Positions 16,123 through 63,340 of a stretch of 64,000 bases of DNA are shown here, in pieces. A program made the position numbers and the translations under genes. The DNA comes from Deltaproteobacteria bacterium. GTDB lineage: Bacteria; Bdellovibrionota; UBA1018; UBA923. The stretch lies in the NCBI GenBank assembly GCA_016186905.1, contig JACPKS010000084.1, positions 2,261 through 66,260 on the forward strand. The letters run 5' to 3'. Position 1 is the first letter of the stretch. Each line of letters begins with the position of its first letter. The notes beneath the pieces were generated by a model. That model worked only from the letters and a program-made list of their open reading frames with translations. It did not search any database and was not told where the DNA came from.

Positions 16123-16137
16123 TTACCTGTTAATCAA

Positions 16138-16211
16138 ACGCCTATGCCGGTGCGCTTGCCGAACCCATAGCCCGAAGGGCGTGGTGAGTGCAAGCGCACC
16201 GGCATAGGCGT
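16138..16211. terminator. 21-bp perfect inverted repeat (ACGCCTATGCCGGTGCGCTTG / CAAGCGCACCGGCATAGGCGT) around a 32-nt loop that itself contains a GCCC-GAA-GGGC mini-hairpin. Bidirectional terminator or REP-like structured element.
   Basis: Base-by-base pairing checked: 16138-16158 pairs with 16191-16211. Sits exactly between the convergent der and OMP stops. No flanking U-run on either strand. Confidence 0.6.
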
Positions 16212-16216
16212 GTAAA

Positions 16217-16978
16217 TCACCAAGTAAACAACAACATCATGCCAAACGAGTACCAGGTGCCGGTCTTGTCGGCGATGCCCGAGGTCGCGAATTTCGTGTC
16301 GAACTGGTCGTTGAACGAGACGAAGTGCGCAGCCGCGTTGAGATCGAGGAAAGTTTTCTTGGGCTTGAGCGTGAGCTCGAACCCCAGTCCTGCGTTGAAG
16401 CCCACGGCTTGCTCTTCTTGGATGGTTCCGCCCGTCGTGGTGGCTCCGGTGCCTGAGCCGATATTGTCGGTGCGTTTGTAGATTCCCGCTCCCGCGAGCA
16501 GGTGAGGGCCGACGAACGCGAGCGGCGCCGAAAGATCGTGCGTGTCGAAGTAGTATCGAATCTGCGGGATGAACCGAAAGAGATTCACGCTGGTCAAGCC
16601 GTCGGGCTGAACGTCGTAACTATGTTTGCTGTTTTGAATCCCGAGCGAGAACGCGAAGTGAAAGTCGAACCAGTAGACGAGCTGAAAATCGAGCGTGGGA
16701 AAGCCGCCCTGATAAAGCCTGCCGGCGTTGCCGCTCGCCGACGTGAACCCTCCGCCGAGCCCCACGCCGAAGAACCGGCCATACTGAAAAAATTTCTCGT
16801 CCTCGGCCTCTTCCTCGGCCGATTCGAACTCGCCGTAGCCCGAGTAGGGGCTTTCGATGATTTCGTTTTCAGGGGGCGTTGCGGTTGGATTCTCGGCCGC
16901 GCGTGCCGGCGCAAGCGCGGGCGGCGCGGACGCGGCGGCCGCCGCCAGGATCGCGAGCCAGAGACGTCCGCGCCGGAA
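16217..16978 (-). CDS. Outer-membrane beta-barrel protein (OMP_b-brl family); start codon unresolved
   Basis: ORF-track part 16217..16765. The same frame stays open upstream and encodes a signal-peptide-like RRGRLWLAILAAAAASAPPALAPARAAE with no ATG. C-terminal aromatic ...LLFTW. Confidence 0.5.
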   Translation of the reverse strand, partial: FRRGRLWLAILAAAAASAPPALAPARAAENPTATPPENEIIESPYSGYGEFESAEEEAEDEKFFQYGRFFGVGLGGGFTSASGNAGRLYQGGFPTLDFQLVYWFDFHFAFSLGIQNSKHSYDVQPDGLTSVNLFRFIPQIRYYFDTHDLSAPLAFVGPHLLAGAGIYKRTDNIGSGTGATTTGGTIQEEQAVGFNAGLGFELTLKPKKTFLDLNAAAHFVSFNDQFDTKFATSGIADKTGTWYSFGMMLLFTW

Positions 16979-24576: not shown

Positions 24577-25857
24577 ATGCGCTCTGAAGACAGAGTTCCG
24601 GCCATTCTCCGCGACCCGATCGTGTGGGGAAATCTTCTATTGCGCGCGATGCTTTTCGCGCTCGCGGCCGGCGCTTGGCACTGGCACAGCGGCGATAGCG
24701 GGCATTATCTCCTGTCGGCCGAGCAAGTCTGTCGCGGCGAGTGGGGCGGCGAGCCCATCCGTGTACCGCTCTATGCCTGGTATCTCTGTCTTTCTTCTTT
24801 TGGCGCGGTTGCCCGAGGCGCGGGGGAGCTTGGCGGCTCAGGCGTCGTGCTTCCTCTTCTCGGCCAAACGCTTTTGCTCTTCGCGTGCGGGATCGTGTTG
24901 TATCGGCGCTTTGGCCGGGCGATCGCGGCGTGCTGGCTCTTTGATCCGGTGCTGCTCGTGTACGGATCTTTCGTCATGACGGATGCTTTTTTCGCGGTTT
25001 TCGTTCTGGCGATGGCGCTCACGGTATCAAGGGCATTGGAGGCACGTGCTTTGCCGCGAATCCGCGCGCGCACGCTGTATTTTTTCGGAGCGGCTCTCGG
25101 AGCGGCCATTTTGACCCGGCCGGTGGGTATTCCCTTAGGCGTCCTTTCCGCGGCGGTGCTGGGAATCCTCGCTTTGCGCGGCCGTTTCAAGGCACGAGAG
25201 ATCGCGGTGACGGCGTTGATCGTCGCGGCGTTGCTTGCGCCGCGACTGTATTGGAATCAGACCCGGCACGGCAGGCCCTTCATTGCCGAACAGGGAAGCG
25301 ACTGGATCAAGACCGTCGCGGGCGCGGTGGAATACCACGGCACGGGCCTGACGTTTCATGAGGCCGAGGAGAAATGGATGCGCGAACATCCCGCGCGTCC
25401 CGTTGCCGAGGCGTACGCCTCGATTTTCGCGCGGTTTCCGGCATGGGCGTGGCTGACATCGAAGGGCATGGCGCGCGTGCTGGTGGGCCACGTCAACGTG
25501 GAGTGGACGTATCTCTTCACGGGGCGCACCGTGCTCGGTCCGGGGTGGTTCAAAGTGGGAGAGGGCGGCGAGGGCTCGCCGGTCTCTGGAGTGTGGCTGG
25601 TTCCCTGGTTGTTCGGAATCGCGCTGGTTGCCGGCTATTACGCCTGGCTTTACCTGCGTGCGGCGCGGTCCGCGCTACCCGCGCTGAAAATGGATCGCGG
25701 ATTCGCGGCGTTCGCCGCATGGAGCCTTCTGTCCGCCGCGTTTCTGGCTTTTGCTCCGCAAGTTTTCGGAGACGCGCGCTTTCGCGCGCCGATCGTGCCG
25801 ATCGTGCTGGTGCTTTGGGGAGCCGCTCTGGAACATATTAGGAAAGCGCGCATATGA
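24577..25857 (+). CDS. Polytopic membrane glycosyltransferase, GT-C fold (PMT/ArnT, GT39/GT83-like)
   Basis: About 11 hydrophobic segments; N-terminal loop with conserved acidic/aromatic residues and the short FVMTDAFF motif typical of PMT_2/ArnT-like proteins. Start ATG 24577 (MRSEDR...). Confidence 0.55.
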   Translation: MRSEDRVPAILRDPIVWGNLLLRAMLFALAAGAWHWHSGDSGHYLLSAEQVCRGEWGGEPIRVPLYAWYLCLSSFGAVARGAGELGGSGVVLPLLGQTLLLFACGIVLYRRFGRAIAACWLFDPVLLVYGSFVMTDAFFAVFVLAMALTVSRALEARALPRIRARTLYFFGAALGAAILTRPVGIPLGVLSAAVLGILALRGRFKAREIAVTALIVAALLAPRLYWNQTRHGRPFIAEQGSDWIKTVAGAVEYHGTGLTFHEAEEKWMREHPARPVAEAYASIFARFPAWAWLTSKGMARVLVGHVNVEWTYLFTGRTVLGPGWFKVGEGGEGSPVSGVWLVPWLFGIALVAGYYAWLYLRAARSALPALKMDRGFAAFAAWSLLSAAFLAFAPQVFGDARFRAPIVPIVLVLWGAALEHIRKARI

Positions 25858-27170
25858 GGGATGCGCGCGTGATTTTCGGCGTGCTCGTCGTTTACATCCT
25901 CTCGGTTTACGGCTCGATGGCCGTGATGAGCGTGGGCAGTGGCGTGGTGTTTGCTGCGTGGATTTTTCTCTTCGCCAGGCCGCGCGTGTTTGCAGGCGAG
26001 GTCGCGGGGTGGACGCGTTCGCCGCTTTGGCGGCCGACGCTGGTTCTTTCGCTTGCTTGCGTCTGGTCGCTCGCGTGGGCGCGGATTTCTGGTCTTGAGT
26101 TTTTCGGCGCGCGGCCCGAGATCCGGTGGATCGAGGACACCCGCAAGCTATGGCATATTTTCTTTCCGTTCGTACTGAGTTCGTTTTTGATGCGGCTTTC
26201 GGATGAGGACTTCCGGAAAGCACTTTGGCTTTGGCTAGGAGCAGGCGCGGCGCTCGCGTGCTTCGGAATTCTTCAGTACTACGTTCCGATCTATAAGTCG
26301 CAGTACCTTCCGCACGTCACCTACGACACGTACGTGCGCGGAAGCGGGGCTCTCGATTTTCTGCGAGGCCGTTACCACGCGACCGGGCTTACCGGTTTTC
26401 ATTTGAGCTTCGCCTCTATTTTCGGGTTCCCGACCGGCGTGTGGTTCGCGCTTGCGGCGCTGCGGTGGCGCGAAGAAGGGTGGACGCAGCGCACGCGCTG
26501 GCTTGCAGCAGGCGCGATCTTGTTTTTTATCACCAACATTCTTACGTATTCGAAAACGACGTGGGTTGCCCTTCCTTTACTGGTGCTTGGTGTCGCGTTC
26601 GTGGCGATGAAGGGGCGCATTCGTTACATTTTGACCGCGGTCATGATCGTGTTCGCAGCGGTTGGAATGCAGACCTCCGAGTTTCGGCTGCGGTTTCAGG
26701 GGACGGACACGATTAAAGAGCGTCTTGAGGTCTGGTCGGCCAATCTCGAGATGCTCAAGCAGCATCCGTTATTCGGAGTGGGCTGGCATCACAACTCCGA
26801 TCTTTCGGAAGCGTATTACAAAGCGCGCGGGATGCACGGCTTCGTCTCGCATGCCCACAATAATTTTCTCGATCAGCTCGCGTCGACGGGCGCGTTCGGA
26901 CTTGCGGGCTTCGTGTGGTGGAACTTCATCGTGATCGCGGCTGCGTACCGGTTGTTTCGGCGGGGAGGAGTCGTTTCCCCGTCCGCCGACTCCGAGACGC
27001 GGCTTCTTTACCGCGCGCTGGGGCTGGGATTCTTCGGCGGTTGGTTTCTCTTGCACTTAAGCGGCATGACCCAAACCAATTTCTGGGACGCGAAGGTGCT
27101 GCACCAGATCGGGCTTGTCGCGGCGTTTACGTGCGAGGCGTGGCGGAGGACTTCCGCAAAGCGCACCTGA
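25854..27170 (+). CDS. O-antigen ligase / Wzy_C-family membrane protein (RfaL/PglL-like)
   Basis: Multi-TM protein with the Wzy_C periplasmic loop (TYSKTTWVALPLL ... GVGWHH...HAHNNFLDQLASTG). ATGA overlap with the upstream GT-C gene. Confidence 0.7.
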   Translation: MRDARVIFGVLVVYILSVYGSMAVMSVGSGVVFAAWIFLFARPRVFAGEVAGWTRSPLWRPTLVLSLACVWSLAWARISGLEFFGARPEIRWIEDTRKLWHIFFPFVLSSFLMRLSDEDFRKALWLWLGAGAALACFGILQYYVPIYKSQYLPHVTYDTYVRGSGALDFLRGRYHATGLTGFHLSFASIFGFPTGVWFALAALRWREEGWTQRTRWLAAGAILFFITNILTYSKTTWVALPLLVLGVAFVAMKGRIRYILTAVMIVFAAVGMQTSEFRLRFQGTDTIKERLEVWSANLEMLKQHPLFGVGWHHNSDLSEAYYKARGMHGFVSHAHNNFLDQLASTGAFGLAGFVWWNFIVIAAAYRLFRRGGVVSPSADSETRLLYRALGLGFFGGWFLLHLSGMTQTNFWDAKVLHQIGLVAAFTCEAWRRTSAKRT

Positions 27171-27275
27171 CTTTCTTATTCCATTCCTAATGTGATCTCG
27201 CGGCCGTTCGGCCTCCGTCTTGCATTCCACGTCATTTCAGTGGGTTCGGAAGCATTCCGTTGTGGATATGCACTT

Positions 27276-27289
27276 ATACATATATGTAT
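27276..27289. promoter_or_regulatory. Perfect 14-bp palindrome ATACATATATGTAT overlapping the brnT start codon (candidate BrnA/BrnT autoregulatory operator)
   Basis: Reverse complement is identical. The ATG of brnT lies at 27284-27286, inside the palindrome. Local AT-rich region. Confidence 0.45.
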
Positions 27290-27574
27290 GATATTATCTA
27301 TGAAGGGTTTGAGTGGTCGTCTAGCAAAGAGGAGCTCAATATCCTTAAACATGGCGTGAATTTTACCGAAGCGTCGACGTGCTTTAGCGATCCGAGAGGA
27401 TTTGGGTTTGATGATCTGAAGCATTCCGATGTCGAGCGACGAGAATGGTGGATTGGCATGTCGGAGCGGAAAAGAATTTTAATCACCTGGTTCACGCCTC
27501 GTGGGGAACGCATTCGGATTATCGGATCTGCGTCATTTCGTAAATTTCGGAGACTCTACAATGAAAGAACCTGA
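27284..27574 (+). CDS. brnT: BrnT toxin (DUF497, RelE/ParE-fold ribonuclease)
   Basis: MYDIIYEGFEWSSSKEELNILKHGVNFTEA...RIRIIGSASFRKF matches the BrnT pattern (F-EWD..K...N..KHGV.F.EA; RIISAR). The ORF-track TTG at 27260 is an alternative start. Confidence 0.75.
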   Translation: MYDIIYEGFEWSSSKEELNILKHGVNFTEASTCFSDPRGFGFDDLKHSDVERREWWIGMSERKRILITWFTPRGERIRIIGSASFRKFRRLYNERT

Positions 27575-27845
27575 CCTTAGAAAAATGAGATACAACAAGG
27601 AACTCACCCAACAGATCCGCAAGTCCTTCGCGGGAAAAAGGAAGACCCGCATCACGATTTACATCGACGATGATTCGCTGGAGGAGTTGAAGCGAAGTGC
27701 GGCTGACACCGGTGCGGCCTACCAATCACTGTTGAACCGTATGCTTCGCAACGCGCTTTTCAATGCCGAGGCGAACTCTACGGAAACTCGTTTGCGGCGG
27801 ATCGAACGGGAGCTCGCTCGGTTGAAGAAAAAGATTGCGGCGTAG
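27561..27845 (+). CDS. brnA: BrnA antitoxin (CopG/RHH-like)
   Basis: Overlaps the brnT 3' end by 14 nt. ITIYIDDDSLEELKRSAADTGAAYQSLLNRMLRNAL matches the BrnA signature (TIRLDDDVLEWFK...GYQTRIN..LR). Confidence 0.7.
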   Translation: MKEPDLRKMRYNKELTQQIRKSFAGKRKTRITIYIDDDSLEELKRSAADTGAAYQSLLNRMLRNALFNAEANSTETRLRRIERELARLKKKIAA

Positions 27846-27960
27846 GTAAGGCGAATCACCAGGTTTAGGCCATATTAATTCCGTGCAGGAGAGCCCAATC
27901 GTGACGCCTGAGTTGATGGTTGGAAGCGCCGGCTGGACATATGCAAGACGAACAACAAGG

Positions 27961-28293
27961 CTATCTTCGCGCCACGAGCTTTTTGATGCTGATCCGGCAA
28001 TACCCGTCGAAGACTTCCGCTTCGTCGAAAATCTCGGAAATGGAGCGAACCTGCGCGACATGATCGTTTGTCCCCAGGAGTAAGCTTTCAAACGACATGC
28101 CCAGCGCCTTCGCCAAGCGCGCGATCGCGCGCAAGTCGTGCGGATTCGCGCCGCTCACCCAATTCTGAACCACGCTGGTGCTCACGTCGGCCATCTCGGC
28201 GACATTGCGAAGAGTGAGATGGCGCTCTTTCATCACGGTCGAGAGAATCTTGCTGAACGGGAGCTTGTTCGTTCCGGCGTTTTTGCTCGGCAT
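27961..28293 (-). CDS. XRE-family helix-turn-helix transcriptional regulator
   Basis: HTH_3 core KERHLTLRNVAEMADVSTSVVQNWVSGANPHDLRAIARLAKALGMSFESLL. Start taken at the ATG giving MPSKNAG...; the ORF-track upstream extension lacks support. Confidence 0.7.
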   Translation of the reverse strand: MPSKNAGTNKLPFSKILSTVMKERHLTLRNVAEMADVSTSVVQNWVSGANPHDLRAIARLAKALGMSFESLLLGTNDHVAQVRSISEIFDEAEVFDGYCRISIKKLVARR

Positions 28294-28345
28294 GCGTCCC
28301 TCTATGTTCGTATCGCATGCGCAGACGAGAAAGAGGTTTGCCGAA

Positions 28346-28357
28346 AACTGTACAGTT
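28346..28357. promoter_or_regulatory. Perfect 12-bp palindrome AACTGTACAGTT about 55 nt upstream of the XRE start (candidate operator)
   Basis: Reverse complement is identical. Located in the XRE 5' region. Confidence 0.4.
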
Positions 28358-28452
28358 ACGTTTTGCAGTATTTGAGGCCGGCTTGGAAAGCGGTTCATCG
28401 AACGCATCGCGCGTGCAGCGATGCAAACGGTGTTCCGAGTCGCGGAGCGCCG

Positions 28453-28872
28453 TCAGTCTTGCCGGATCGTTACGGGATAGAGAACGGGCTTGGCTTGGCC
28501 ATCCTTGGGCTTAGGAAATTCAATTCGCCCAAGCGTTTTAAGAAGGCAGTACTGCAGATCGGGATCGGGGTCTGACATTCCAAGAACTTCAGCCTTTGAA
28601 GCGCGGCCATCGGGAGTTACGGTAAATTTCAGTTTTACGCGTTGCACGGAGCCGGTCTGAACCGAAACGCTGTCGCGTCCGCAGCGCGCGAAGCTCTCGG
28701 AGTGCCGGTTCATCGTGCGTCCGAGCGGGCCTTCGGAAGGCATGCCGGTCGCCGCCGCGTCGGGCGAGGCCCCGATGTTGGCGCAGCCCGGAAAACCGTA
28801 TATGGCAGCCAATATTACCACTGCGCCGGTCAGCAGTGTTCGCGGCTGAGCTTTAAGGAACATTTGAATCAT
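28453..28872 (-). CDS. Secreted/lipoprotein with TonB-C/AgmX-PglI-like C-terminal domain
   Basis: Signal peptide MIQMFLKAQPRTLLTGAVVILAAIYGFPGC. The C-terminal VKLKFTVTPDGRASKAEVLGMSDPDPDLQYCLLKTLGRIEFPKP resembles the TonB_C fold pattern. Confidence 0.5.
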   Translation of the reverse strand: MIQMFLKAQPRTLLTGAVVILAAIYGFPGCANIGASPDAAATGMPSEGPLGRTMNRHSESFARCGRDSVSVQTGSVQRVKLKFTVTPDGRASKAEVLGMSDPDPDLQYCLLKTLGRIEFPKPKDGQAKPVLYPVTIRQD

Positions 28873-28935
28873 TCTGAAAGCGTAGCATATTTTCCGCGTG
28901 GTTCCAGATCCTACGGAAGTCATGTACATGTCTTT

Positions 28936-29007
28936 TCCGCGCCTCGCGCAGAGGTTAAATCACGTGCGCATCTCTATCCGCGCCTCGCGCCCGCGCTAAA
29001 TCGTGAG
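28936..29007. repeat. Two direct copies (period 41 bp) of an about 31-bp element TCCGCGCCTCGCGC-N5-TAAATC(A/G)TG at the 3' end of the Y1 transposase gene (REP-like or IS200-end-like)
   Basis: Copy 1 is 28936-28966 and copy 2 is 28977-29007, with an identical 14-nt core. Copy 1 contains the GCGCA...TGCGC inverted repeat. Confidence 0.55.
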
Positions 29008-29553
29008 ACGGCCGTTTCGGATGAAGAATCGCCTCACCGTCCCATTGGCGGTCAGCAGTTCGATGCCCTCGCCCTCGAAAGCATTCTTCGTGAAGTAATG
29101 GTGCAGACCGAGCAGGTCTTTTCCCCAGTTCACGACGCGGGAGTAGGCGAGGGAGTCCCAGAATTTCCGTTTTACGTCGCTTGCGTGCCCGTGTTCGCCG
29201 GCGGCATTCCTTCCGGCGAGATTCACGCCTTCGGTCCGCGGCGCAACGGCCTTTCCTTTCTTCGCCCCGGTGACGCGCGTGGCGATTTGCGCCGGTACTG
29301 TGCGCATGAACGACTGAAAATCTCCGCGACGGCTTGCCCGCACCAGCAAATGCACGTGATTCCCGACGTTTTCAAAGTGCATGACTCGCACCCTGAATCG
29401 GTGCGCAAATTTATAGACGATGCTGTCGATCGATTTCTTGTGCGCTAGGCTCAGAAGTGACCATGAACCGCGTGCTCGCGAGGAGCGCATGACGATATGG
29501 ACCGGGCGCTTCGTGTCGAGCGGGCGAAACGTCTTGCGGCGTCCGCGTTCCAA
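28996..29553 (-). mobile_element. IS200/IS605-type Y1 HuH transposase (TnpA, or REP-associated tyrosine transposase RAYT), orphan with no tnpB
   Basis: HuH motif GNHVHLLVRAS and catalytic Tyr region KFWDSLAYSRVVNWG, 185 aa. Flanked at its 3' end by the direct repeats above. Confidence 0.75.
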
Positions 29554-29784
29554 TCCGCCAAAACACTAACAGGGCAATAGAATTTTACGCGCTAGCGGCC
29601 AATTCTCGATTGAAGTGCGACAGGAGAAAGGATCAGCCGGCGGTAAAATCAGGGAGTGCCGCTAAGGGAGGAAGCTATAGCGTCATTGAAGACGGCTTAA
29701 TGGGCGAGGGAACGGCCCCAGAGTGCTCTAAAGGGAGATCTGCACGGGCGCGGCGAAGTTCAAGGCCGAATCGCCCCGCGAAGG

Positions 29785-32199
<2,415 letters not shown>

Positions 32200-32229: not shown

Positions 32230-33285
32230 TCAAGCGAGAAATCCCAGCGCCTCTTTGACGTGTTCCATGGTTTTGGCCGCTCGCACGCGTGCCGCGTCCG
32301 CCCCCTTTTTGAGGATGCGATCGAGCTCGCCGCGATCCGCCAGAAGCCCCTTGAACTTTTCGCGCAGCGGGCGGATGCATTCCACGACGATTTCAGCCGT
32401 CTCAGCTTTGAGGTGCCCGTACTGCTTTCCCGCGTAGCTTGCCACGATCTCGTCGGGAGCTTTTCCGGTAATCGCCGATTGAATCGAGATGAGATTTTTC
32501 ACGCCGGGTTTTTCGCCGGTGTAGGCGATCTCAGTGCCCGAATCGGTCACGGCTTTTTTGATTTTTCTTGAAATCTCGTCGTCGGAATCGCCGAGAAATA
32601 CGGTCGCGTTGGGAATCGGATCCGACTTCGACATCTTGGCCGTCGGCTCCTGCAGGCTCATGATCCGGGCGCCCACCGCCGGAATGAACGGCTCAGGAAC
32701 GACGAAGAGGGGAAGTGCCTCTTTGACCTCTTTGTTTTGCGTGACTTGACTGGGCCCCGGAAATTTTTCCGCATACATCCCATTCATCCGGATCGCGATG
32801 TCGCGCGCGAGCTCGATGTGCTGTTTCTGGTCGTGTCCGACCGGAACGAGATTGGCCTGATAAAGCAGGATGTCGGCGGCCATGAGCACCGGATAGAAAA
32901 ACAATCCCGCGCCCACGCTTTTTTTCTTGGCACTCTTGTCTTTGAACTGGGTCATGCGCTCGAGCTCGCCCAGCCAGGTGTGGCAGCCCAAAATCCAGGC
33001 CAGTTCGGCGTGTTCCGGAACCTGTGACTGCACGAAGATGAGGCTCTTGCGCGGATCGATTCCGGACGCAAGATAGATCGCAAGCGTCTCGCGCGTGCGT
33101 GCGCGCAGTTCCGCCGGGTCTTGCGGCACCGTGATCGCGTGAAGATCGACGATGCAGTAGATGCACTCGTGCGTCTGCTGGAGTCCCGCCCAGCTGCGGA
33201 GCGCGCCGAGGTAATTTCCCAGCATGAGGTTTCCCGAGGGTTGAATCCCCGAGAGCACGATCGGTTTTTTCGCGGAAGCGCCCAT
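32230..33285 (-). CDS. trpS: Tryptophan--tRNA ligase
   Basis: SGIQPSGNLMLGNYLGAL N-terminus (HIGH-region equivalent) and KMSKS (AKMSKSD). 351 aa. Confidence 0.88.
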   Translation of the reverse strand: MGASAKKPIVLSGIQPSGNLMLGNYLGALRSWAGLQQTHECIYCIVDLHAITVPQDPAELRARTRETLAIYLASGIDPRKSLIFVQSQVPEHAELAWILGCHTWLGELERMTQFKDKSAKKKSVGAGLFFYPVLMAADILLYQANLVPVGHDQKQHIELARDIAIRMNGMYAEKFPGPSQVTQNKEVKEALPLFVVPEPFIPAVGARIMSLQEPTAKMSKSDPIPNATVFLGDSDDEISRKIKKAVTDSGTEIAYTGEKPGVKNLISIQSAITGKAPDEIVASYAGKQYGHLKAETAEIVVECIRPLREKFKGLLADRGELDRILKKGADAARVRAAKTMEHVKEALGFLA

Positions 33286-35512: not shown

Positions 35513-36262
35513 TTGAAAGCGAATCCCGATTTTCTTCAAAACGCGTTCAGCTATCTGCCGCTTTCCAGTAACGGGCTTTTCAGCTTAGCGTGCCTCCTTA
35601 TCGCTTTCGCGCTGCTTGATTTGTTTTTCACGAGAGCGATAAGGTTCAAGGCCGTTCATGGATTGGTGCTGCTGGCCGGTTCGGCGCTTGTCGTTAAAAT
35701 CGCCGTCGGAGAAGCCGTGTTGTTGGGCAGAAGCCAGGGGTACGAACCTGACCAGCCGATCAAATTTTCGCATCGAATCCATGCGGGCGAAAATAAGATC
35801 AACTGCGTTTATTGCCATACCGGAGTCAATGACAGCAGGTATGCCGGAATACCGCCCGCGAGTTTATGCTTGAATTGTCACAACGTCATCCGCAGCGGCA
35901 CGAATACCGGCAAGACAGAAATAGACAAGATCCACCAATCTGTCGACTCGGGGACGGCGATCCGATGGGTTAAAGTGCACACGCTGCCGGACTTCGTGTA
36001 TTTCAGCCATGCGCAACACGTGAACGTGGGCAAGATTCAATGCAAGAAATGTCACGGTGACGTCGAGAACATGGGCCGCATTCAGCAGGTTTCTGATTTA
36101 AGCATGGGTTGGTGCATTCAATGCCACAGGGAAACCAACGTAAATTTCGACAATAAATATTATGCTAGTTACAAACAGCACAAAGCTTTGGAGTCCGGCA
36201 AAATTTCAAAAGTAACTGCACAGGATATTGGAGGCAATAACTGCTCCAAATGCCACTACTAG
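35513..36262 (+). CDS. actA: Alternative complex III subunit ActA (pentaheme cytochrome c, membrane-anchored)
   Basis: Five CxxCH motifs (CVYCH, CLNCH, CKKCH, CIQCH, CSKCH) after an N-terminal TM anchor. Confidence 0.85.
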   Translation: MKANPDFLQNAFSYLPLSSNGLFSLACLLIAFALLDLFFTRAIRFKAVHGLVLLAGSALVVKIAVGEAVLLGRSQGYEPDQPIKFSHRIHAGENKINCVYCHTGVNDSRYAGIPPASLCLNCHNVIRSGTNTGKTEIDKIHQSVDSGTAIRWVKVHTLPDFVYFSHAQHVNVGKIQCKKCHGDVENMGRIQQVSDLSMGWCIQCHRETNVNFDNKYYASYKQHKALESGKISKVTAQDIGGNNCSKCHY

Positions 36263-36291
36263 TGAATTACTGATCAGGAATTATTATTTTT

Positions 36292-39200
36292 ATGAGTACA
36301 AACGAGTACAAAAAACACTGGGGCAGTATTGAAGAATTCGAAGTCGTTGCAGGTGTAAACACTCAAACTGAAATCAATGCATCGGATAACTCCAGGAAAA
36401 TAACAAAAGAGAACGAATCAATCAGCAGGCGTGATTTTCTGAAGGCAAGCGGGTTTAGTCTGGTTGCCGCAAGCCTGACCTTATCCGGATGTAAAAACGC
36501 GATCAATAAAGCGATTCCGTATCTGATCAAACCTGAATCGATCACTCCCGGTGTCTCCACCTTTTATGCGTCAACTTTTTTTGACGGCCATGATTACTGC
36601 AGCATTCTTGTCAAAACCACTGAAGGCCGTCCGATAAAGATCGAAGGCAACACGCTTTCAAGGGTCTCGACCGGCGGGACAAATGCGAAGGTTCAGGCAT
36701 CCGTTCTCAGCCTTTATGATGATTTCCGGATCAAGTCACCTCTTAAAGCGAAACAAAAAACAACTTGGGATACCGTTGACGCCGAGATTATTTCGAAGCT
36801 CGAAGAGCTGACGAAGAAAGGGAATAAAATCGTTATTCTCACGTCTTCAATCATCAGTCCGTCGACTAAAAACGTATTTAAGGATTTCCTTAAGAAATAT
36901 CCCACCACCGAAGTCATCTCTTATGACGCTATTTCCTCATCAGGGATGATCGAAGCAAATAAAATGACTTTTGGTAAAGAGGTTCTGCCGACCTATAAGT
37001 TCAATCGTGCGGATCTCATCGTCAGTTTCGGGGCGGATTTCCTGGGCACTTGGATTGCGCCGATTGAATTTACAAAGCAGTATGCAAGCAGAAGAACGCC
37101 CAGGTCAAAAACAGGCAAGGCAAATGCCGGCATTTCCAAGCATGTTCAATTTGAATCCACTTTATCCCTGACCGGCTCTAACGCCGATTACAGGATCCCC
37201 ATCAATCCATCCGAGGAAGGGCCGGTCCTTTTAGAAATCTACAATAAGCTTGCGACTCGCGCAGGAAAGAAGCCGGTTGCGGTATCCGATTCGAAGGTCG
37301 CCAATTCACAAATCGACGCTGGAACTCTTCCGGACGAACTCTGGGCGAAAAAAGGAAGGGCTTTAGTCGTTTCCGGCTCGAACGATGTTCACATTCAGAT
37401 ATTGGTGAATAAGATCAACAGCCTCATTGGGAGCTATGGGGCAACCATTGACCTTGGAAATCCCACTTATTACAGGCAAGGCATTGACGGCAAGATGGCT
37501 GAGTTGATTGAGCGCCTGGAAAAAGGAGAGGTAAAAGGGATGATTCTGTACCATGTTAATCCTGCTTACGATTATCCTCAGGCGGATCGATTCATCAACG
37601 CTTTAGCCAAGACGACTTTATCAGTATCATTCTCCGAGACCATGGATGAAACCGCGAGTCTGGTGAACTACATTTGTCCTGACAACCATTTCCTGGAATC
37701 ATGGAACGATGCCGAGCCAAGAAAAGGGAGTTTTAGTTTAGGCCAGCCCACCATCGGTAAATTGTTTGATACCCGGCAAGCTCAGGAAAGCTTGCTTAAA
37801 TGGACGGGCTTGACCGGCAGTCAGGGCGGAGAGGCGACTGAAGGAGAGAGTGCTTACTATCTCTATATTAAAAAATATTGGGAAAAGGCTTTATATCCCT
37901 TACAGTCAGGTCATCATTCTTTCGCATCGTTTTGGACCGCCGCTCTTCAGAACGGAGTCTACGAGCCGCCGGCGGCCCATTCTAAATCGCCACATACATT
38001 CTTACTGTCTGATCATGAGTTCAGCAAAACCGTTTCATCCGTATTATCGGAGAAAACCGAGGGATTTGAGTATTCGCTATATGAAAGTATTGGAATCGGC
38101 ACAGGCAGGCATGCGAACAATCCCTGGTTGCAGGAATTGCCCGATCCGGTCTCAAAGGTTTGCTGGGATAATTATCTGGCTGTTTCTTACGGTACCGCTA
38201 AAAAATTAAACCTCAAACTCGGGGATAATGTAAAAATTAATGATTTGTTCGAGCTCCCGGTTTTAATCCAGCCCGGCCAGTCGGATCATACGGTTTCAAT
38301 CGCGTTAGGTTACGGAAGAACCCACGCGGGAAAAGTCGCTGATCATGTCGGAAAAAACGCTTACAAATTAGTTAGCCTGCAAAAACGCAAAAACGGCATA
38401 CAACGGATATATAGCGGTGGCGGGATTACCTTTAAACCCACGGGTCGGAATTATATTTTTGCCCTTACGCAGACCCATCACACGATGGAAGGGCGAAACC
38501 ACGTAAGGCGCGGACGTCTTTCCGAATATGCCAAAAATCCGTATACAGGAAACGAACAACGCATCGAGGATCTGAAGCATAAAGTCTCGTTGTACAAAGC
38601 AAGAGTTTTCGAAGGGCACCACTGGGGTTTAGCCGTGGATCTGAGCCGCTGTACGGGTTGCAGCGCCTGCGTGATCGCCTGCACGGCGGAAAATAATGTT
38701 CCGGTCGTGGGTCGCGATGAGGTCCGGCAAAAGCGCATCATGCATTGGCTCAGGGTCGACAGGTACTATTCCGAGCAGCCGGTAAGACCGGAGGTCTATT
38801 TTCAGCCGGTCATGTGCATGCAATGCAATCATGCTCCCTGTGAAAACGTATGCCCGGTCGGGGCGACCCAAAATAGCAAGGAAGGGTTGAATGAGATGGC
38901 GTACAATCGATGCGTCGGAACCCGTTATTGCATGAACAATTGCCCATACCATGTCAGGAGATTCAACTGGCTCGCATACAGCAATAACAATAAATTTGAT
39001 TACAATACGAACAGCGAGCTGGGCAAAATGGTGCTTAACCCTGATGTGGTGGTCAGGTCCAGGGGTGTTGTTGAAAAATGCACGTTCTGCGTTCAGCGTA
39101 TTCAAGAATCCAAACTTGTGGCCAAAACAGAAAACAGGGAACTCCTTGACGGCGAAATCAAGACAGCGTGCGTGCAAGCCTGTCCGGCCGGCGCAATGGT

Positions 39201-39348
39201 GTTTGGTGACCTGAACAAAAAAGACAGTGCAGTGTCCAAAGCTTTTTTAGACGAGAGAAATTATTTCTTACTCGAAGAATTACACACCGTACCTGCAGTC
39301 GGGTATTTGACAAAAATTAAGAATGACGAGCCTCTCGCAAAATCCTGA
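36292..39348 (+). CDS. actB: Alternative complex III subunit ActB (molybdopterin-oxidoreductase-like domain fused to 4Fe-4S ferredoxin domain, Tat signal)
   Basis: Tat motif SRRDFLKASG. 1018 aa. C-terminal Cys clusters CTGCSACVIAC...CMQCNHAPCENVCP...CPYHVRRFN. Confidence 0.85.
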   Translation: MSTNEYKKHWGSIEEFEVVAGVNTQTEINASDNSRKITKENESISRRDFLKASGFSLVAASLTLSGCKNAINKAIPYLIKPESITPGVSTFYASTFFDGHDYCSILVKTTEGRPIKIEGNTLSRVSTGGTNAKVQASVLSLYDDFRIKSPLKAKQKTTWDTVDAEIISKLEELTKKGNKIVILTSSIISPSTKNVFKDFLKKYPTTEVISYDAISSSGMIEANKMTFGKEVLPTYKFNRADLIVSFGADFLGTWIAPIEFTKQYASRRTPRSKTGKANAGISKHVQFESTLSLTGSNADYRIPINPSEEGPVLLEIYNKLATRAGKKPVAVSDSKVANSQIDAGTLPDELWAKKGRALVVSGSNDVHIQILVNKINSLIGSYGATIDLGNPTYYRQGIDGKMAELIERLEKGEVKGMILYHVNPAYDYPQADRFINALAKTTLSVSFSETMDETASLVNYICPDNHFLESWNDAEPRKGSFSLGQPTIGKLFDTRQAQESLLKWTGLTGSQGGEATEGESAYYLYIKKYWEKALYPLQSGHHSFASFWTAALQNGVYEPPAAHSKSPHTFLLSDHEFSKTVSSVLSEKTEGFEYSLYESIGIGTGRHANNPWLQELPDPVSKVCWDNYLAVSYGTAKKLNLKLGDNVKINDLFELPVLIQPGQSDHTVSIALGYGRTHAGKVADHVGKNAYKLVSLQKRKNGIQRIYSGGGITFKPTGRNYIFALTQTHHTMEGRNHVRRGRLSEYAKNPYTGNEQRIEDLKHKVSLYKARVFEGHHWGLAVDLSRCTGCSACVIACTAENNVPVVGRDEVRQKRIMHWLRVDRYYSEQPVRPEVYFQPVMCMQCNHAPCENVCPVGATQNSKEGLNEMAYNRCVGTRYCMNNCPYHVRRFNWLAYSNNNKFDYNTNSELGKMVLNPDVVVRSRGVVEKCTFCVQRIQESKLVAKTENRELLDGEIKTACVQACPAGAMVFGDLNKKDSAVSKAFLDERNYFLLEELHTVPAVGYLTKIKNDEPLAKS

Positions 39349-39356
39349 CATCAAAT

Positions 39357-40724
39357 ATGTACGACACAAGAATCAGAGGTGAACTAGTCGAGGGGGGAGT
39401 GACGTATTCAGATATTACCAGGGATATCCTTGCCCCGATAGAGCAGCCCGCGCCGGCATGGTGGTATGCCGCCATGTCGGTCAGCCTCTGCGCCATCGCT
39501 TTCGGCGGCTGGGCAGGCTACATGACGATCAGTCGCGGGATAGGAACCTGGGGGCTTAACAATACGCAAGCCTGGGGTTGGGATATCATCAATTTCATCT
39601 GGTGGATCGGTATCGGGCATGCCGGTACGGCGTTTTCGATTTTCCTGCTGATCTTACGGCAAAAATGGAGAACTTCGATCAACCGCGCGGCTGAGGCGAT
39701 GACGGTTGCCGCGGTCATGTGCGCGGGAATTTTTCCGCTTATTCACATGGGACGCCCATGGATGGCATTTTACGTCATACCTTATCCCAATACCCGCGGG
39801 CCGCTCTGGGTTAATTTCAATTCCCCTTTGTTCTGGGATGTGATCGCAATCAGCACTTATTTGACTGCTTCCGCGACGTTCTGGTACGTGGGAATGATTC
39901 CTGATTTCGCCACGGTTCGGGATAAAACAAACTCTAAAGTAAAAAAACTGATCTATGGAATTCTCAGTTTTGGCTGGGTCGGCTCAGCGAAAGGCTGGCT
40001 GAGATTTGAAGCGTTATCAATGATCCTAGGCGGACTCACCGCGCCTTTGGTCATTTCCGTCCATTCCATCGTCTCAATGGACTTTGCCACCTCTGTAATC
40101 CCCGGCTGGCACACGACCATCTTTCCCCCCTATTTCGTCGTAGGCGCTATTTTTTCCGGCTTTGGCATGGTGCTCACCCTGATGATCATCATCAGGAATA
40201 TTTACAACTATCATCACTATGTCACTGACGGACATATCGATGCCATTGCCAGAATCTTGGTTTTCATCAGTTTGATCATGGGCTCCGCCTATGCGACTGA
40301 AATTTTCATCGCATCGTACTCGGGCAGTGAATATGAATACTTCACTTTCTACAACAACCGGATTACCGGCGACCACATGATCGGATTCTGGGGAATGATC
40401 CTTTGCAATGCCGTCATTCCACAGTTGTTCTGGTTCAAGGCAGTCAGGAGAAACACCGCGCTCGTATTCATCATTTCCCTGTTCGTCAATCTTGGGATGT
40501 GGTTTGAGAGGTTCACCATCATCGTCACCTCCCTGTCGAAGGATTATATGCCTTCGAACTGGACTGACTATTCTCCGACACTAGTTGAAATCGGTCTTTA
40601 CGTCGGAACACTTGGAATATTCACAACGTGCATATTATTGTTTTTCAAAAATATTCCCATGATCGCGATCAGTGAAGTAAAGGGAATTTTAAAACACACG
40701 AGCATAAAAAATGCTAAAAACTGA
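39357..40724 (+). CDS. actC: Alternative complex III subunit ActC (NrfD/PsrC-like polytopic membrane subunit)
   Basis: 455 aa, about 10 TM, NrfD-family pattern. Follows actB. Confidence 0.8.
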   Translation: MYDTRIRGELVEGGVTYSDITRDILAPIEQPAPAWWYAAMSVSLCAIAFGGWAGYMTISRGIGTWGLNNTQAWGWDIINFIWWIGIGHAGTAFSIFLLILRQKWRTSINRAAEAMTVAAVMCAGIFPLIHMGRPWMAFYVIPYPNTRGPLWVNFNSPLFWDVIAISTYLTASATFWYVGMIPDFATVRDKTNSKVKKLIYGILSFGWVGSAKGWLRFEALSMILGGLTAPLVISVHSIVSMDFATSVIPGWHTTIFPPYFVVGAIFSGFGMVLTLMIIIRNIYNYHHYVTDGHIDAIARILVFISLIMGSAYATEIFIASYSGSEYEYFTFYNNRITGDHMIGFWGMILCNAVIPQLFWFKAVRRNTALVFIISLFVNLGMWFERFTIIVTSLSKDYMPSNWTDYSPTLVEIGLYVGTLGIFTTCILLFFKNIPMIAISEVKGILKHTSIKNAKN

Positions 40725-41253
40725 TACGAATGAAAACATAGTGGGCGTTTTCGATACAGAGGAGGCTTTGATTAATGCCATCAAAAACATTAAGAAAAGC
40801 AGCTTTAAAATCAAGAATGTTTTTACTCCGTACCCGATCCATGAAGTATTTCATGAATTGGGTCTGACCACGCGGCTGCCTTGGCTCGCCTTTTTCTATG
40901 CCGTAGGCGGGACGATCCTGGTTTTCGCGTTTCTCTACTGGACGTCAGTGATCGATTATCCGATTTCCATCGGCGGCAAGCCGGATTTGTCCCCGTCGTT
41001 CATCATCGTCATGTTTGTCATGACGATTTTATTCGGGATCGTATTATCTTTAGTGACGTTTTTCACCGTCCAGAGGTTATATCCGGGAAAAGTTCCAGTC
41101 ATTATCCATGAAGACATCGTGGACGATAAATATGTAATCGTCATTGAAAAGAGTAATGCAATGACTGAACGTGATGTCGTGGCAATCAATAAATTATTCG
41201 TTTCAAACATGGCGATCGAAATAGGCCTTAAAAACGATGTCGAGGCGATATAA
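40711..41253 (+). CDS. actD: Alternative complex III subunit ActD (DUF3341)
   Basis: 180 aa with VGVFDTEEALINAIKNIK start, two TM segments. Position between actC and actE. Confidence 0.7.
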   Translation: MLKTDTNENIVGVFDTEEALINAIKNIKKSSFKIKNVFTPYPIHEVFHELGLTTRLPWLAFFYAVGGTILVFAFLYWTSVIDYPISIGGKPDLSPSFIIVMFVMTILFGIVLSLVTFFTVQRLYPGKVPVIIHEDIVDDKYVIVIEKSNAMTERDVVAINKLFVSNMAIEIGLKNDVEAI

Positions 41254-41255
41254 AC

Positions 41256-41828
41256 TTGAAAGACTTTAATTCAAAACATCTTTTGTTTTGCTGCCTGCTC
41301 TCAGTGTCTCTGGGGGCTTGTCAAAGGGATAGAAATCATCCGGGTTATAGATACCTGGATGATATGGTTCATTCCCCGGCCTATAGGTATTATTCTGAAA
41401 ACCCGAACTTCAAAGACGGCAAAACCGCGCAACCTCCCGTTCCAGGCACGATTGCGCGGGGGGCGGTTCCTTATCCCTATGCGAATACGATCGACGAGCA
41501 GAAAAGGGCTGGAAGAGAACTTGTCAATCCCATCGGCCATTCGCCGGAAGATATAAAAATAGGAAAAGAGAAATACGCAGTATACTGCGCCATGTGTCAC
41601 GGCGCTAAAGGTAAAGGGGACGGGAATCTGGTTCAGAGCGGGAAATTCGGAATGCCCGCTCCGCCGTTAGTCGCGGACTATGTTCAAAATGAGCCTGACG
41701 GCGCGATCTTTCACACGATCACTGTGGGTACGGTTTCCGGCTTGATGGGTTCGCATAGTCTCCAGCTAAAACCCTATGACCGTTGGCGTGTCGTAAAATA
41801 CATTAAAACCGGGCTAAAAAACGAATGA
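41256..41828 (+). CDS. actE: Alternative complex III subunit ActE (monoheme cytochrome c, lipoprotein-type signal)
   Basis: CAMCHGAKGKGDG heme site. Signal with LGAC. 190 aa. Confidence 0.8.
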   Translation: MKDFNSKHLLFCCLLSVSLGACQRDRNHPGYRYLDDMVHSPAYRYYSENPNFKDGKTAQPPVPGTIARGAVPYPYANTIDEQKRAGRELVNPIGHSPEDIKIGKEKYAVYCAMCHGAKGKGDGNLVQSGKFGMPAPPLVADYVQNEPDGAIFHTITVGTVSGLMGSHSLQLKPYDRWRVVKYIKTGLKNE

Positions 41829-42979
41829 ACTCCTCCGTGACCATGGACGATTCACGATTCAAAATCCCGCCTAAGTTAACGGCGGTATCCGTAATTTTGT
41901 TGGGTATCGGGATTGTTTCGGCCATTTCCGGATTTGCCAGTGACCCTGTCAGAATCTGGGGGAATGTTCTGATCTGCAATTACTATTTTATATGCCTGGT
42001 GATCGGAGCCACTTTTTTCGCGGCAATCCAGCGGATCACTCAAGCAGGCTGGTCAGCAATGTTTGAAAGAATCCCCGGGGCAATAAGCGGTTACATGCCA
42101 TTCGCGGCCGTTCTTACGCTGCTCATGGTTTTCTTCGGTACTCATTCCATCTATCATTGGTCGCCGCATAAAGCCTGGTACTTGAATTTTCCGTTTTTTT
42201 CGCTCAGGGCGGTCATTTTTCTCGGGGCCTGGCAATTCTTCATGCGCTTGCAGAGAAAGTTCTCGGTCAACGAAGATAAAGTGGGCGGACTGCAGAACTT
42301 CAAGAAGGCTGAATTCTACTCGCGAGTATATATTTTTGTTTTAGCGCCGACCTTTTCTTTAGCCTCGTTTGACTGGATCATGTCCATCGACAGCCACTGG
42401 TTCAGCACCATCTTCGCGATTATTAATTTTGTATCCGCTTTTTTACATGGTTCCGCTGCCATTATTTTAATAACGCTTATTTTACATAAAATGGGCTATT
42501 TCCCGCAGCTCAACTCCGCTCATCTTCACGACTTCTCCAAATATTTATTCATGTTATCCATCATGTGGGTTTATGTTTGGTTCAGCCAATATTTTCTGAT
42601 TTGGTACGGTAATATACCCGAAGAAACTATTTATTATGTTTCAAGAACCAGCCGTGAGTGGAATGCGACGTTCTTGGCCAACGTGATCATCAACTGGTGT
42701 TTTCCGTTCCTGTTTTTGATGAATAACCGGGTCGCGGGAAACATCAACGCGCTGATCGTGACTTCAGTGGTTTTACTCGTGGGCATGTGGCTTGATATTT
42801 ATATGCAGGTTATGCCCGGTTTAACAGGCAAGAACTCTTTCGGTATGATTGAATTAGGGATGTTTTTAGGCTTTTTGGGGATTTTCATCTTTGCTGTAAC
42901 AAGATCATTGAGTAAGGCTAATATTATCCCGGCAAATCACCCTTACCTGAATGAAAGTTTTTTGCATAAAGCACACTAA
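41825..42979 (+). CDS. actF: Alternative complex III subunit ActF (second NrfD-like membrane subunit)
   Basis: 384 aa polytopic membrane protein homologous in pattern to ActC. Overlaps the actE stop. Confidence 0.75.
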   Translation: MNSSVTMDDSRFKIPPKLTAVSVILLGIGIVSAISGFASDPVRIWGNVLICNYYFICLVIGATFFAAIQRITQAGWSAMFERIPGAISGYMPFAAVLTLLMVFFGTHSIYHWSPHKAWYLNFPFFSLRAVIFLGAWQFFMRLQRKFSVNEDKVGGLQNFKKAEFYSRVYIFVLAPTFSLASFDWIMSIDSHWFSTIFAIINFVSAFLHGSAAIILITLILHKMGYFPQLNSAHLHDFSKYLFMLSIMWVYVWFSQYFLIWYGNIPEETIYYVSRTSREWNATFLANVIINWCFPFLFLMNNRVAGNINALIVTSVVLLVGMWLDIYMQVMPGLTGKNSFGMIELGMFLGFLGIFIFAVTRSLSKANIIPANHPYLNESFLHKAH

Positions 42980-43013
42980 TTAATGTGAACGATCAAAGGA
43001 TTCAGGGTGTTTC

Positions 43014-43790
43014 ATGATGAACCATTTAATCAGAATTTTTTTTATTTGCACCATGTCTTCGTCGCTTGCTTGGAGCGCGGGCGGCCCTTCCCTGGATCAG
43101 CGAATCGGGAATACGCTGCCGGGCGACCTGGCCTTCCACGACGAGACGGGCGTAAACGTGAGGTTCCGCGAGCTGCTTACGAAGCCGACCGTCTTTGTGC
43201 CCGTCTATTTGACCTGTCCCCAGATGTGTCCGCTCATTCTGAATGCGGTCGCCCAGGCTCTCGGCAATATCAAATGGACGGTTCCGGGGCGAGACTTTCA
43301 GGTGATCACCGTGAGCTTCAACGACCGCGATACTCCCAATGACGCCCGGACAAAAAAGAAAAATTTCCTGGCGGCAATCGGGAAACCCTACCCCGAGTCC
43401 GCTTGGAAATTTCTGACGGGAGACCAACAGAACATCCAGCGTTTTCTCGACGCCGCCGGGTACCAGGTTGCGAAAAACGGCATGGACTTCGAGCATCCTG
43501 CCGCGATTTTCGTGACGTCGGACAAGGGCCGGATCATACGCTACTTACACGGCGTCAACTATGGCTCGTTCGATCTTGAGATGGCGGTCGGCGAGGCGGC
43601 GCGCGGTCGACTGGGGCTGGTTACCAGCCGGATCATCGGATATTGCTTCACATATGATCCAACCCGGAGGGCTTACGTTTTTAATATCCTTCAGGCCGTT
43701 GGTCTGGTAATGGGTGCACTTTTAGTTGGGTTCATCGGATATCTCCGATTCGGTGCCTCGAAGAAGGGTGCGGCGGCATGGAAAAAATAG
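43014..43790 (+). CDS. SCO1/SenC-family copper chaperone (thioredoxin-fold, CxxxC)
   Basis: TCPQMCP CxxxC motif and downstream conserved His. C-terminal TM helix. Sits between ACIII and cox genes. Confidence 0.7.
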   Translation: MMNHLIRIFFICTMSSSLAWSAGGPSLDQRIGNTLPGDLAFHDETGVNVRFRELLTKPTVFVPVYLTCPQMCPLILNAVAQALGNIKWTVPGRDFQVITVSFNDRDTPNDARTKKKNFLAAIGKPYPESAWKFLTGDQQNIQRFLDAAGYQVAKNGMDFEHPAAIFVTSDKGRIIRYLHGVNYGSFDLEMAVGEAARGRLGLVTSRIIGYCFTYDPTRRAYVFNILQAVGLVMGALLVGFIGYLRFGASKKGAAAWKK

Positions 43791-63154: not shown

Positions 63155-63340
63155 TGAAAAAAGCGCCTCCAGGTACTTAACTATCGGTCTTTTTATGTAA
63201 ATACTTGATATAAACACTGTACTATTTTATCTGCAAGCGATGTGGAATCTCAAAAAAACATGACTTTGATACTCAAAGGGTTTTTAAAATTTGTTAATTT
63301 ATATGAACTATCACCGTGCTTCGCCCTGAAAAACCAAGAA

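Follow-up and report, generated by a model that had tools for sequence, protein, structure and literature searches.

A conserved lipoprotein gene at the centre of a probably old, composite interval between a glycosylation operon and lon in a Deltaproteobacteria bacterium

The subject of this work is a 2.6-kb interval (positions 27171-29784) in a 64-kb stretch of a Deltaproteobacteria bacterium contig, hereafter the window. The interval runs between two convergent stop codons, that of a Wzy_C O-antigen ligase gene on the left and that of the lon protease gene on the right, and in between lie a brnT-brnA type II toxin-antitoxin cassette (BrnTA), a gene for a Cro/CI-type XRE helix-turn-helix (HTH) regulator, a small lipoprotein gene with a TonB-C-like domain, and a solo Y1 HUH gene. 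A preliminary description made from the letters of the window had taken this interval for an AT-richer islet and a small mobilome-derived insertion. Comparison with loci from relatives (labelled L0xx below) points to another history, namely that the interval is probably an old composite which grew around an ancestral lipoprotein gene and whose extra modules have been inherited vertically, rather than one recent insertion. The five gene calls of the preliminary description and their coordinates are all supported by Pfam and NCBIfam (Table 1). What we observe here are gene identities, synteny, indel boundaries, selection statistics, and composition, and from these we infer the direction of each change as gain or loss.

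In L015, the closest species-level genome found (Lon 75% identical; labelled Bacteriovoracaceae), the gene order is trpS, lon, and the lipoprotein gene, followed by the convergent ligase and PMT_2 genes, with 4 bp between the lon stop and the lipoprotein start and 10 bp between the lipoprotein stop and the ligase stop. The same gene order is found in L026 (lipoprotein 60% identical), where the ligase gene follows directly after the lipoprotein gene, and L028 (lipoprotein 62% identical) has trpS, lon, and the lipoprotein gene with a 6-bp lon-lipoprotein gap; across L015, L026, and L028, the lon-to-lipoprotein distance is 4-65 bp. L027 also has lon and the lipoprotein gene (50% identical), here separated by two unrelated opposite-strand genes at 5067-5958 that encode a KGG stress-repeat protein and a DUF2267-like protein. 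Y1, XRE, and BrnTA are absent from the corresponding interval in all four of these more distant relatives. Because it is linked to lon in four relatives without the other three modules, the lipoprotein gene is best read as the ancestral downstream partner of lon, and, judged by gene order, trpS-lon-lipoprotein is a conserved ancestral arrangement. The conserved position after lon suggests co-transcription with lon in the relatives, and it is this lon-lipoprotein link that is broken by the Y1 segment in the window. The presence of different genes at the L027 joint indicates that the lon-lipoprotein joint took up DNA independently at least twice. The same comparison dissolves the "XRE-plus-lipoprotein pair" of the preliminary description, as the lipoprotein gene accompanies lon without XRE in these four relatives.

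Two closer relatives share the additional genes with the window. L021 (GCA_964405105.1; C-terminal part of Lon 94% identical, Y1 87% identical) has lon, Y1, the lipoprotein gene, XRE, and the ligase gene, without BrnTA, and L022 (Y1 76% identical) has Y1, the lipoprotein gene, XRE, brnA, brnT, and the ligase gene, which is the order of the window. We propose that the ancestral state consisted of trpS, lon, and the TonB-C-like lipoprotein gene set against the convergent glycosylation operon, where lon and the lipoprotein gene probably shared a transcript, and that an ancestor of the small clade comprising the window, L021, and L022 gained DNA at the joints on both sides of the lipoprotein gene. 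The additions would be a solo Y1 HUH segment of about 0.85-0.9 kb between lon and the lipoprotein gene, the XRE gene downstream of the lipoprotein gene, and a brnT-brnA cassette of about 0.7 kb at the 3' end of the ligase gene, all since passed on vertically under purifying selection. With extra DNA flanking an ancestral gene left and right, no fewer than two events are required, and the number of additions is probably three.

The divergence of the genes in the interval is consistent with this history. By Nei-Gojobori estimates between the window and its L021 and L022 orthologs, all of these genes are under purifying selection: the ratio of nonsynonymous to synonymous divergence (dN/dS) is 0.10-0.21 for Y1 (dS 0.33-1.61), 0.05-0.12 for the lipoprotein (dS 0.56-0.81), 0.05-0.12 for XRE (dS 0.69-1.45), and, against L022, 0.09 for BrnA (dS 1.15) and 0.20 for BrnT (dS 0.98). 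The flanking genes give values of 0.07 for lon (dS 0.55) and 0.12-0.16 for the ligase (dS 0.58-1.06). Since dS in the interval lies in the range of these flanking core genes, the extra genes appear to have diverged together with the chromosome, and the combination of purifying selection with core-like dS argues that the additions are old and vertically inherited. As such, the same genes in the same place with matching G+C content (GC), which the preliminary description would have read as ancestral content, are for the most part found within the clade in L021 and L022; their absence from the distant relatives means that they are not universal at this locus.

The drop in GC that had suggested an AT-richer islet is real over the BrnTA cassette of about 0.7 kb, whereas the remainder of the interval is at the window mean. 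GC values of 0.45-0.50 are confined to approximately 27.05-27.65 kb, and the lowest 300-nt window of the dip falls at the 7.5th percentile. The BrnTA cassette has a GC of 0.487 and is the sole AT-rich part of the interval; from 27871 to 29784, GC is 0.573, identical to the window mean of 0.573, and the XRE (0.571), lipoprotein (0.588), and Y1 (0.590) genes match lon, trpS, and that mean. Taken whole, the interval has a GC of 0.550, the 21st percentile among equal-sized windows. Elsewhere in the window, an Alternative Complex III operon, a core respiratory operon, drops to a GC of 0.36 at 35.5-43 kb. It belongs to a cluster at 35513-45394 in which genes for Alternative Complex III (a multihaem cytochrome, an Fe-S/molybdopterin subunit, NrfD, ActD, and cytochrome c) are followed by SCO1 and cytochrome oxidase subunit I, with a GC of 0.36-0.45, well under the window mean and under the interval described here. 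Either this cluster is of foreign origin or the GC of the genome is very uneven. Because a core operon is far more AT-rich than the interval, low GC alone is not a mark of foreign DNA in this window.

Of the two other histories that we weighed, the one closest to the preliminary description holds that all 2.6 kb, together with the lipoprotein gene, arrived as one fairly recent mobilome islet. The gene types are in keeping with this, as BrnTA, XRE regulators, and solo Y1 HUH genes are all typical of the mobilome, as are the local GC dip and a 19-nt imperfect inverted repeat (27196-27214 / 29763-29781) that brackets the interval. That repeat was rejected as a pair of terminal repeats, its arms being 79% complementary, with the left arm inside the variable BrnTA cassette and an ancestral gene between the two. 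With the lipoprotein gene linked to lon in four relatives that have none of the other genes, normal GC outside the cassette, a gene order common to L021 and L022 at core-like synonymous divergence, and BrnTA missing on its own from L021, a single recent islet is highly improbable. What stands of the mobilome-derived insertion is that three of the four modules are of mobilome type and absent from four distant relatives; it was not one insertion, and the lipoprotein gene was not part of what arrived. Conversely, it could be that nothing was inserted and that Y1, XRE, and BrnTA were already present in the ancestor of a wider group and later deleted, once or more than once, on the lines leading to L015, L026, L028, and L027. 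The handful of genomes, compared without a species tree, leaves room for such a history, all of the genes are under purifying selection, and BrnTA can be lost or gained alone, as L021 shows. We nevertheless consider it unlikely, as L027, the deepest outgroup, also has none of the three modules and has unrelated genes at the joint, the 4-6 bp lon-lipoprotein gap of L015 and L028 resembles an undisturbed operon joint more than the scar of a deletion, XRE has very few close homologs, and Y1 paralogs sit in unrelated contexts.

Several points do weigh against an old composite with vertically inherited additions. The genomes are few and come without a species tree, so that L015, L026, and L028 could be one clade with a single loss, and no outgroup but L027 reaches deeper. 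In L022 the contig stops 189 nt short of Y1 on its upstream side, and the adjacency of Y1 to lon is accordingly seen in the window and L021 only. The XRE gene of L021 holds a run of 10 N near the empty BrnTA site, where the junction aligns cleanly on both sides. The low GC at third codon positions (GC3) of brnT across a dS of about 1 is odd for an old acquisition unless the composition is selected, and BrnTA may have been acquired independently at the same site, which is unlikely.

Table 1. Features of the interval and its flanks, with their positions in the window unless a relative is named.
Feature	Position	Strand	Basis
Wzy_C O-antigen ligase gene (left flank)	25854-27170	+	Pfam; convergent with lon side
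BrnTA cassette (promoter region, brnT, brnA, last few ligase codons)	27149-27871	.	presence/absence vs L021
Perfect 14-nt palindrome ATACATATATGTAT over brnT start codon	27276-27289	.	sequence; conserved in L022
brnT, 96-aa type II toxin	27284-27574	+	PF04365, 58.2 bits vs cut-off 34.5
brnA, 94-aa ribbon-helix-helix antitoxin	27561-27845	+	PF14384, 32.6 bits vs 26.1
XRE/Cro-CI HTH regulator, 110 aa	27961-28293	-	PF01381, 27.3 bits vs 23
Perfect 12-nt palindrome AACTGTACAGTT, 53-64 nt upstream of XRE start	28346-28357	.	sequence
Lipoprotein, 136 aa	28453-28863 (ORF extends to 28929)	-	NF033768, 41.2 bits vs 40
Tandem duplication, 41-bp period, two 26-nt copies (28936-28961 and 28977-29002)	28936-29002	.	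repeat search
Solo Y1 HUH gene, 185 codons left	28996-29553	-	PF01797, 25.3 bits vs 23
Junction of ~89-bp deletion vs L021/L022	29554-29571	-	alignments; just downstream of ATTCTATTGCCC
ATTCTATTGCCC, family motif upstream of Y1	29572-29583	-	sole match in window
ATTCTATTGCCC in relatives	L018 1587-1598; L021 1923-1934; L022 145-156
lon protease gene (right flank)	29785-32199	-	Pfam
trpS, upstream of lon	32230-33285

BrnTA is the one module that both deviates in composition and varies in presence among the window, L021, and L022. At the empty site, window positions 27872-27908 align to L021 3615-3651 and the window up to 27148 aligns to L021 from 3675 onward, so that 23 bp in L021 stand where the window has approximately 720 bp; the last few ligase codons, at the edge of the cassette, differ between the genomes. 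Since BrnTA is present in both the window and the more distant L022, loss in L021 is the most economical reading. The window brnT has a GC of 0.455 and a GC3 of 0.48, with brnA at 0.519, and the L022 brnT, whose product is 70% identical, is similarly AT-rich (GC 0.471, GC3 0.46). Shared as it is by both brnT copies, the low GC3 speaks against a recent acquisition with too little time for drift toward the host composition, and suggests that the cassette is stably low in GC.

The cassette resembles the BrnT/BrnA system of Brucella abortus in that both products pass their Pfam models and the toxin gene comes first, with an overlapping gene for a ribbon-helix-helix (RHH) antitoxin; the same two-gene arrangement is found in L022. 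The 14-nt overlap reported in the preliminary description is confirmed as ATGAAAGAACCTGA, and it would couple the translation of brnT and brnA. In Brucella, BrnT is a ribonuclease whose activity depends on Asp6, Glu7, Lys9, Arg41, and Glu78, and the BrnA/BrnT complex binds its own promoter (PMC5086665). The palindrome ATACATATATGTAT at the promoter and start codon of the window brnT fits this known self-repression and may serve the BrnA/BrnT complex as an operator. The likeness has its limits, as the window BrnT has low similarity to solved BrnT-type toxins and BrnA does not reach the stricter NCBIfam equivalog NF047399 (18.3 bits vs 60). A search of the PDB retrieved a single solved BrnT-type match for BrnT, entry 7vd7, annotated as "toxin" (E = 1.8e-5), in which the N-terminal motif reads FEWDANK versus FEWSSSK in the window; the Brucella structure 3U97 was not among the PDB matches at E <= 1. 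Besides PF14384, BrnA has weaker Pfam matches to CopG and RHH models. Operators, co-transcription, and all biochemical activities are predictions here. BrnTA is most likely a standard type II module in which the RNase toxin BrnT would be neutralised by the RHH antitoxin BrnA, and the BrnA/BrnT complex probably acts on the palindrome at the brnT start codon to repress the promoter of the cassette.

The XRE gene is convergent with brnA, as the preliminary description had it, at a distance of 115 bp. Similar to Cro/CI repressors, its product has an HTH_3 domain and a short C-terminal tail, and a palindrome lies upstream of its own gene; unlike them, it has just two close homologs among 5.8 billion proteins and scores far under every NCBIfam subfamily cut-off (RstR, TrbA, DicA). 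On this distribution, XRE is restricted to the present lineage. A comparison with PADLOC returned generic HTH matches only and no defence-system assignment. The palindrome AACTGTACAGTT, kept in L021 and not in L022, is a candidate XRE auto-operator. Because XRE is kept in L021 without BrnTA, we regard it as independent of BrnTA. An alternative in which XRE works within the toxin-antitoxin module, either as part of a three-part system or as a dedicated regulator, draws on the adjacency of XRE and brnA and on the fact that XRE-type antitoxins and regulators are common. It is very unlikely, given that L021 retains XRE under purifying selection although it has no BrnTA, that BrnTA has its own antitoxin/repressor as well as its own palindrome, and that the convergent orientation excludes co-transcription. 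Most likely, the XRE product is a stand-alone repressor that would regulate itself.

The N-terminal signal peptide of the lipoprotein closes with a conserved, lipobox-like G-C, and the protein has two invariant cysteines. The preliminary assignment of a TonB-C/AgmX-like domain is borne out both by the NCBIfam model NF033768, which the protein passes, and by the TonB/TolA C-terminal fold of its predicted structure; against Pfam TonB_C, it stays below the cut-off (19.5 bits vs 24.6). The AlphaFold2 (AF2) model has a mean pLDDT of 86.6, and the top Foldseek matches are TonB and TolA C-terminal domains (2gsk_B, 5lw8, and 2grx_C; probability 1.00, TMt 0.60-0.69). The protein thus shares the fold and the family model of TonB C-terminal and AgmX-PglI domain proteins. 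It differs from TonB in having neither an N-terminal membrane anchor of the kind that interacts with ExbBD nor a proline-rich periplasmic linker, and from AgmX in being small rather than a large gliding-motility protein; the position directly after lon, which sets it apart from both, is a feature of the window's lineage. No relative was confirmed when metagenomes were scanned with an alignment of the lipoprotein, and the genomic contexts described above come from protein-database matches and their contigs.

The Y1 gene was previously noted as an IS200/RAYT-type gene without tnpB. It is indeed a Y1 HUH gene, with the HUH motif (NHVH) and the tyrosine motif (YFTKN) intact, and the window contains no tnpB; what had been overlooked is that the gene is truncated at its 5' end. 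Alignments to the orthologs at the same position in L021 and L022 reveal a deletion of approximately 89 bp that took the Shine-Dalgarno sequence, the start codon, and some 20 N-terminal codons, including those for the nearly invariant Q6, G18, and G19, and an in-frame TAG directly precedes the remaining TTG start at 29553. As the deletion removed the ribosome-binding site (RBS), the start, and the N-terminal arm, the window copy is probably inactive or poorly expressed. The tandem duplication at 28936-29002 spans the 3' terminus of the gene and runs into the adjoining downstream sequence, and is specific to the window, being absent from L021 and L022. Relative to L015, the extra segment is approximately 855 bp long, about the size of an insertion sequence (IS). 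The flanks of the window gene contain no significant hairpins (folding z-scores +0.37 and -0.85). Right after lon, at 1650-1760, L021 has about 60 extra bp with a degenerate second lon 3' end (AGCGTGGTGGATTGA vs AGCGCGGTGAACTGA in the window), which looks like a rearrangement footprint at the lon/Y1 junction.

The window gene belongs to a family of 533 clusters at 50% identity (E <= 1e-30), whose alignment defines a signature of an N-terminal arm (QL..F, HGG, GKRK..RP) followed by NH[VL]H, FWD, and Y-x3-N-x2-E. Across 24 members, both histidines (H86, H88) are invariant, and Y173, the single predicted catalytic tyrosine of the C-terminal helix, is nearly so. The tyrosine motif reads Y[LF]xKNxxE, and the asparagine at +4 is followed by alanine, threonine, arginine, or other residues, not by proline. 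The tyrosine motifs described for TnpAY1 are Y---Q in class 1 (IS200), Y---NP in class 2 (RAYT/TnpAREP), and Y----Q in class 3 (Quentin et al. 2018, PMC6006769), and by its aligned sequences the present family matches none of them. Its score against the NCBIfam IS200 equivalog NF033573 is 21.7 bits, with a cut-off of 55. A PDB search with the single Y1 sequence gave no match, and the link to TnpA structures comes from profile and fold searches only: the AF2 model of the family matches the TnpA of ISDra2 and IS608 and the RAYT structure 4er8, the last being the best overall superposition (TMq 0.47, root-mean-square deviation 3.2 Å). Searches of 72,556 plasmids and 50,697 phages retrieved no match to the family, and no conserved neighbouring gene was found across 75 metagenome loci. 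Paralogs 60-63% identical to the window protein sit in unrelated contexts, and two paralogs that probably come from one metagenome-assembled genome are 78% identical to one another.

Upstream of the Y1 gene lies the motif ATTCTATTGCCC, which is found exactly in the window and in L018, L019, L020, L021, and L022. Its core, ATTGCCC(C), occurs upstream of and in the same orientation as the gene in approximately 56 of 75 distant family loci (metagenome loci within L030-L109), where it takes the form AAAtACC-ATTGCCCC-A, with AAAtACC usually preceding the core. The distant loci that carry it encode proteins 35-45% identical and range in GC from 0.36 to 0.74. The 8-mer CATTGCCC is present in 46 of the 75 upstream regions, with less than one occurrence expected by chance, and there is one copy of the motif per locus. 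No hairpin or excess secondary structure was found at the motif across 56 family loci, and no Rfam family was detected upstream of 18. As a terminal inverted repeat of the TIRYT type, the motif was rejected, there being no consistent inverted copy downstream, and so it was as a -35 box (TTGCCC, 17 nt, then a -10 element), the mean -10 score being 3.00 versus 2.88 at control offsets. A -10-like AAAAT just upstream of the motif is a possible promoter element. From its sequence and placement, the motif could be a promoter or operator, including an auto-regulatory site of the Y1 enzyme, or it could be the enzyme's DNA target, with the ATTGCCCC element as its cognate binding or nicking site.

How far the family resembles known Y1 systems bears on whether the window gene could encode the transposase of an IS200-type insertion sequence that is active and autonomous. 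In favour of this are the Pfam Y1_Tnp match with an intact HUH motif and tyrosine, the fold shared with the IS608 and ISDra2 TnpA of IS200/IS605 (subclass 1.1) down to the HUH and single-tyrosine core, the IS-sized extra segment, the fact that solo tnpA without tnpB occurs in IS200 too, and the presence of family members in many contexts with no conserved neighbour. To these could be added a block of approximately 870 bp that is 93-94% identical between two different contexts (L056 2709-3579 and L062 2704-3579; also in L070, L095, and L102). Within the block are a Y1-family gene with its motif and, on the opposite strand, about 200 bp of an IS5-like transposase N-terminus; the block may be a mobile or recombined unit. 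We rejected it as a mobile Y1 unit, as the IS5-like fragment inside leaves the ends of a Y1 element undefined and its mobility may not stem from the Y1 gene. Unlike IS200/IS605 elements, the family has Y-x3-N-x2-E in place of Y---Q (PMC6006769), falls short of the IS200 equivalog, has a conserved N-terminal arm, and lacks subterminal hairpins, with no structure around its motif. It also appears low in copy number, with one copy in the 64-kb window, is fixed in gene order, and is absent from the plasmids and phages searched. The gene occupies one and the same site beside the lipoprotein gene in all three genomes of the clade, at a dS similar to that of core genes, and the window copy has lost its RBS, start codon, and N-terminal arm. 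An active insertion sequence is therefore quite unlikely.

In its behaviour, the family resembles domesticated RAYTs more than an insertion sequence. RAYTs are low in copy number, vertically inherited, and rare on plasmids (Bertels et al. 2017, PMC5581495), and the family is similar in having few diverged copies, vertical inheritance, no copies on plasmids, and the NH[VL]H form of the HUH motif; some distant members are labelled "RayT" by JGI. It is unlike RAYTs in lacking Y---NP and in having W-D where they have W-[EQ]. Moreover, no REP/REPIN hairpins (REP, repetitive extragenic palindromic) flank the window gene and no dispersed palindromic repeat family is present in the 64-kb window, the family having instead the single linear ATTGCCC(C) motif upstream of the gene. 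Tentatively, then, the Y1 gene may represent an undescribed HUH subclass of TnpAY1 that is solitary, chromosomal, and mostly vertical, with a single invariant, linear ATTGCCCC element instead of REP hairpins, though we would not put this above a possibility.

In the remainder of the window, the glycosylation operon to the left of the interval consists, per Pfam, of a methyltransferase-GT2 fusion gene, PMT_2, and the Wzy_C ligase gene as its last gene. No second copy of any gene of the interval is present within the 64 kb. No Rfam family matched the window, and it contains no tRNA gene and therefore no tRNA integration site. Two very large open reading frames (ORFs) on the minus strand at 52497-63217, encoding 2370 and 1299 aa, are made up of about 30 diverged units of approximately 190-215 nt, and the second contains RCC1-like repeats (PF25390, PF13540, PF00415). 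At 16129-16220, two 31-nt arms, 87% complementary and 30 nt apart, make up an inverted repeat with a strong predicted hairpin.

The value of these results is mainly corrective: a GC dip and mobilome-type genes suggested a recent islet, and synteny instead points to an old composite around an ancestral gene. The region consists of known kinds of systems and is ordinary biology, with the Y1 family and its motif as an only mildly novel lead. The comparison also documents a conserved linkage between lon and a TonB-C-like lipoprotein gene in relatives labelled Bacteriovoracaceae. If the motif upstream of the Y1-family genes is the DNA target of the Y1 protein, the family would offer a simple test case for domesticated Y1 HUH enzymes that work without REP sequences.

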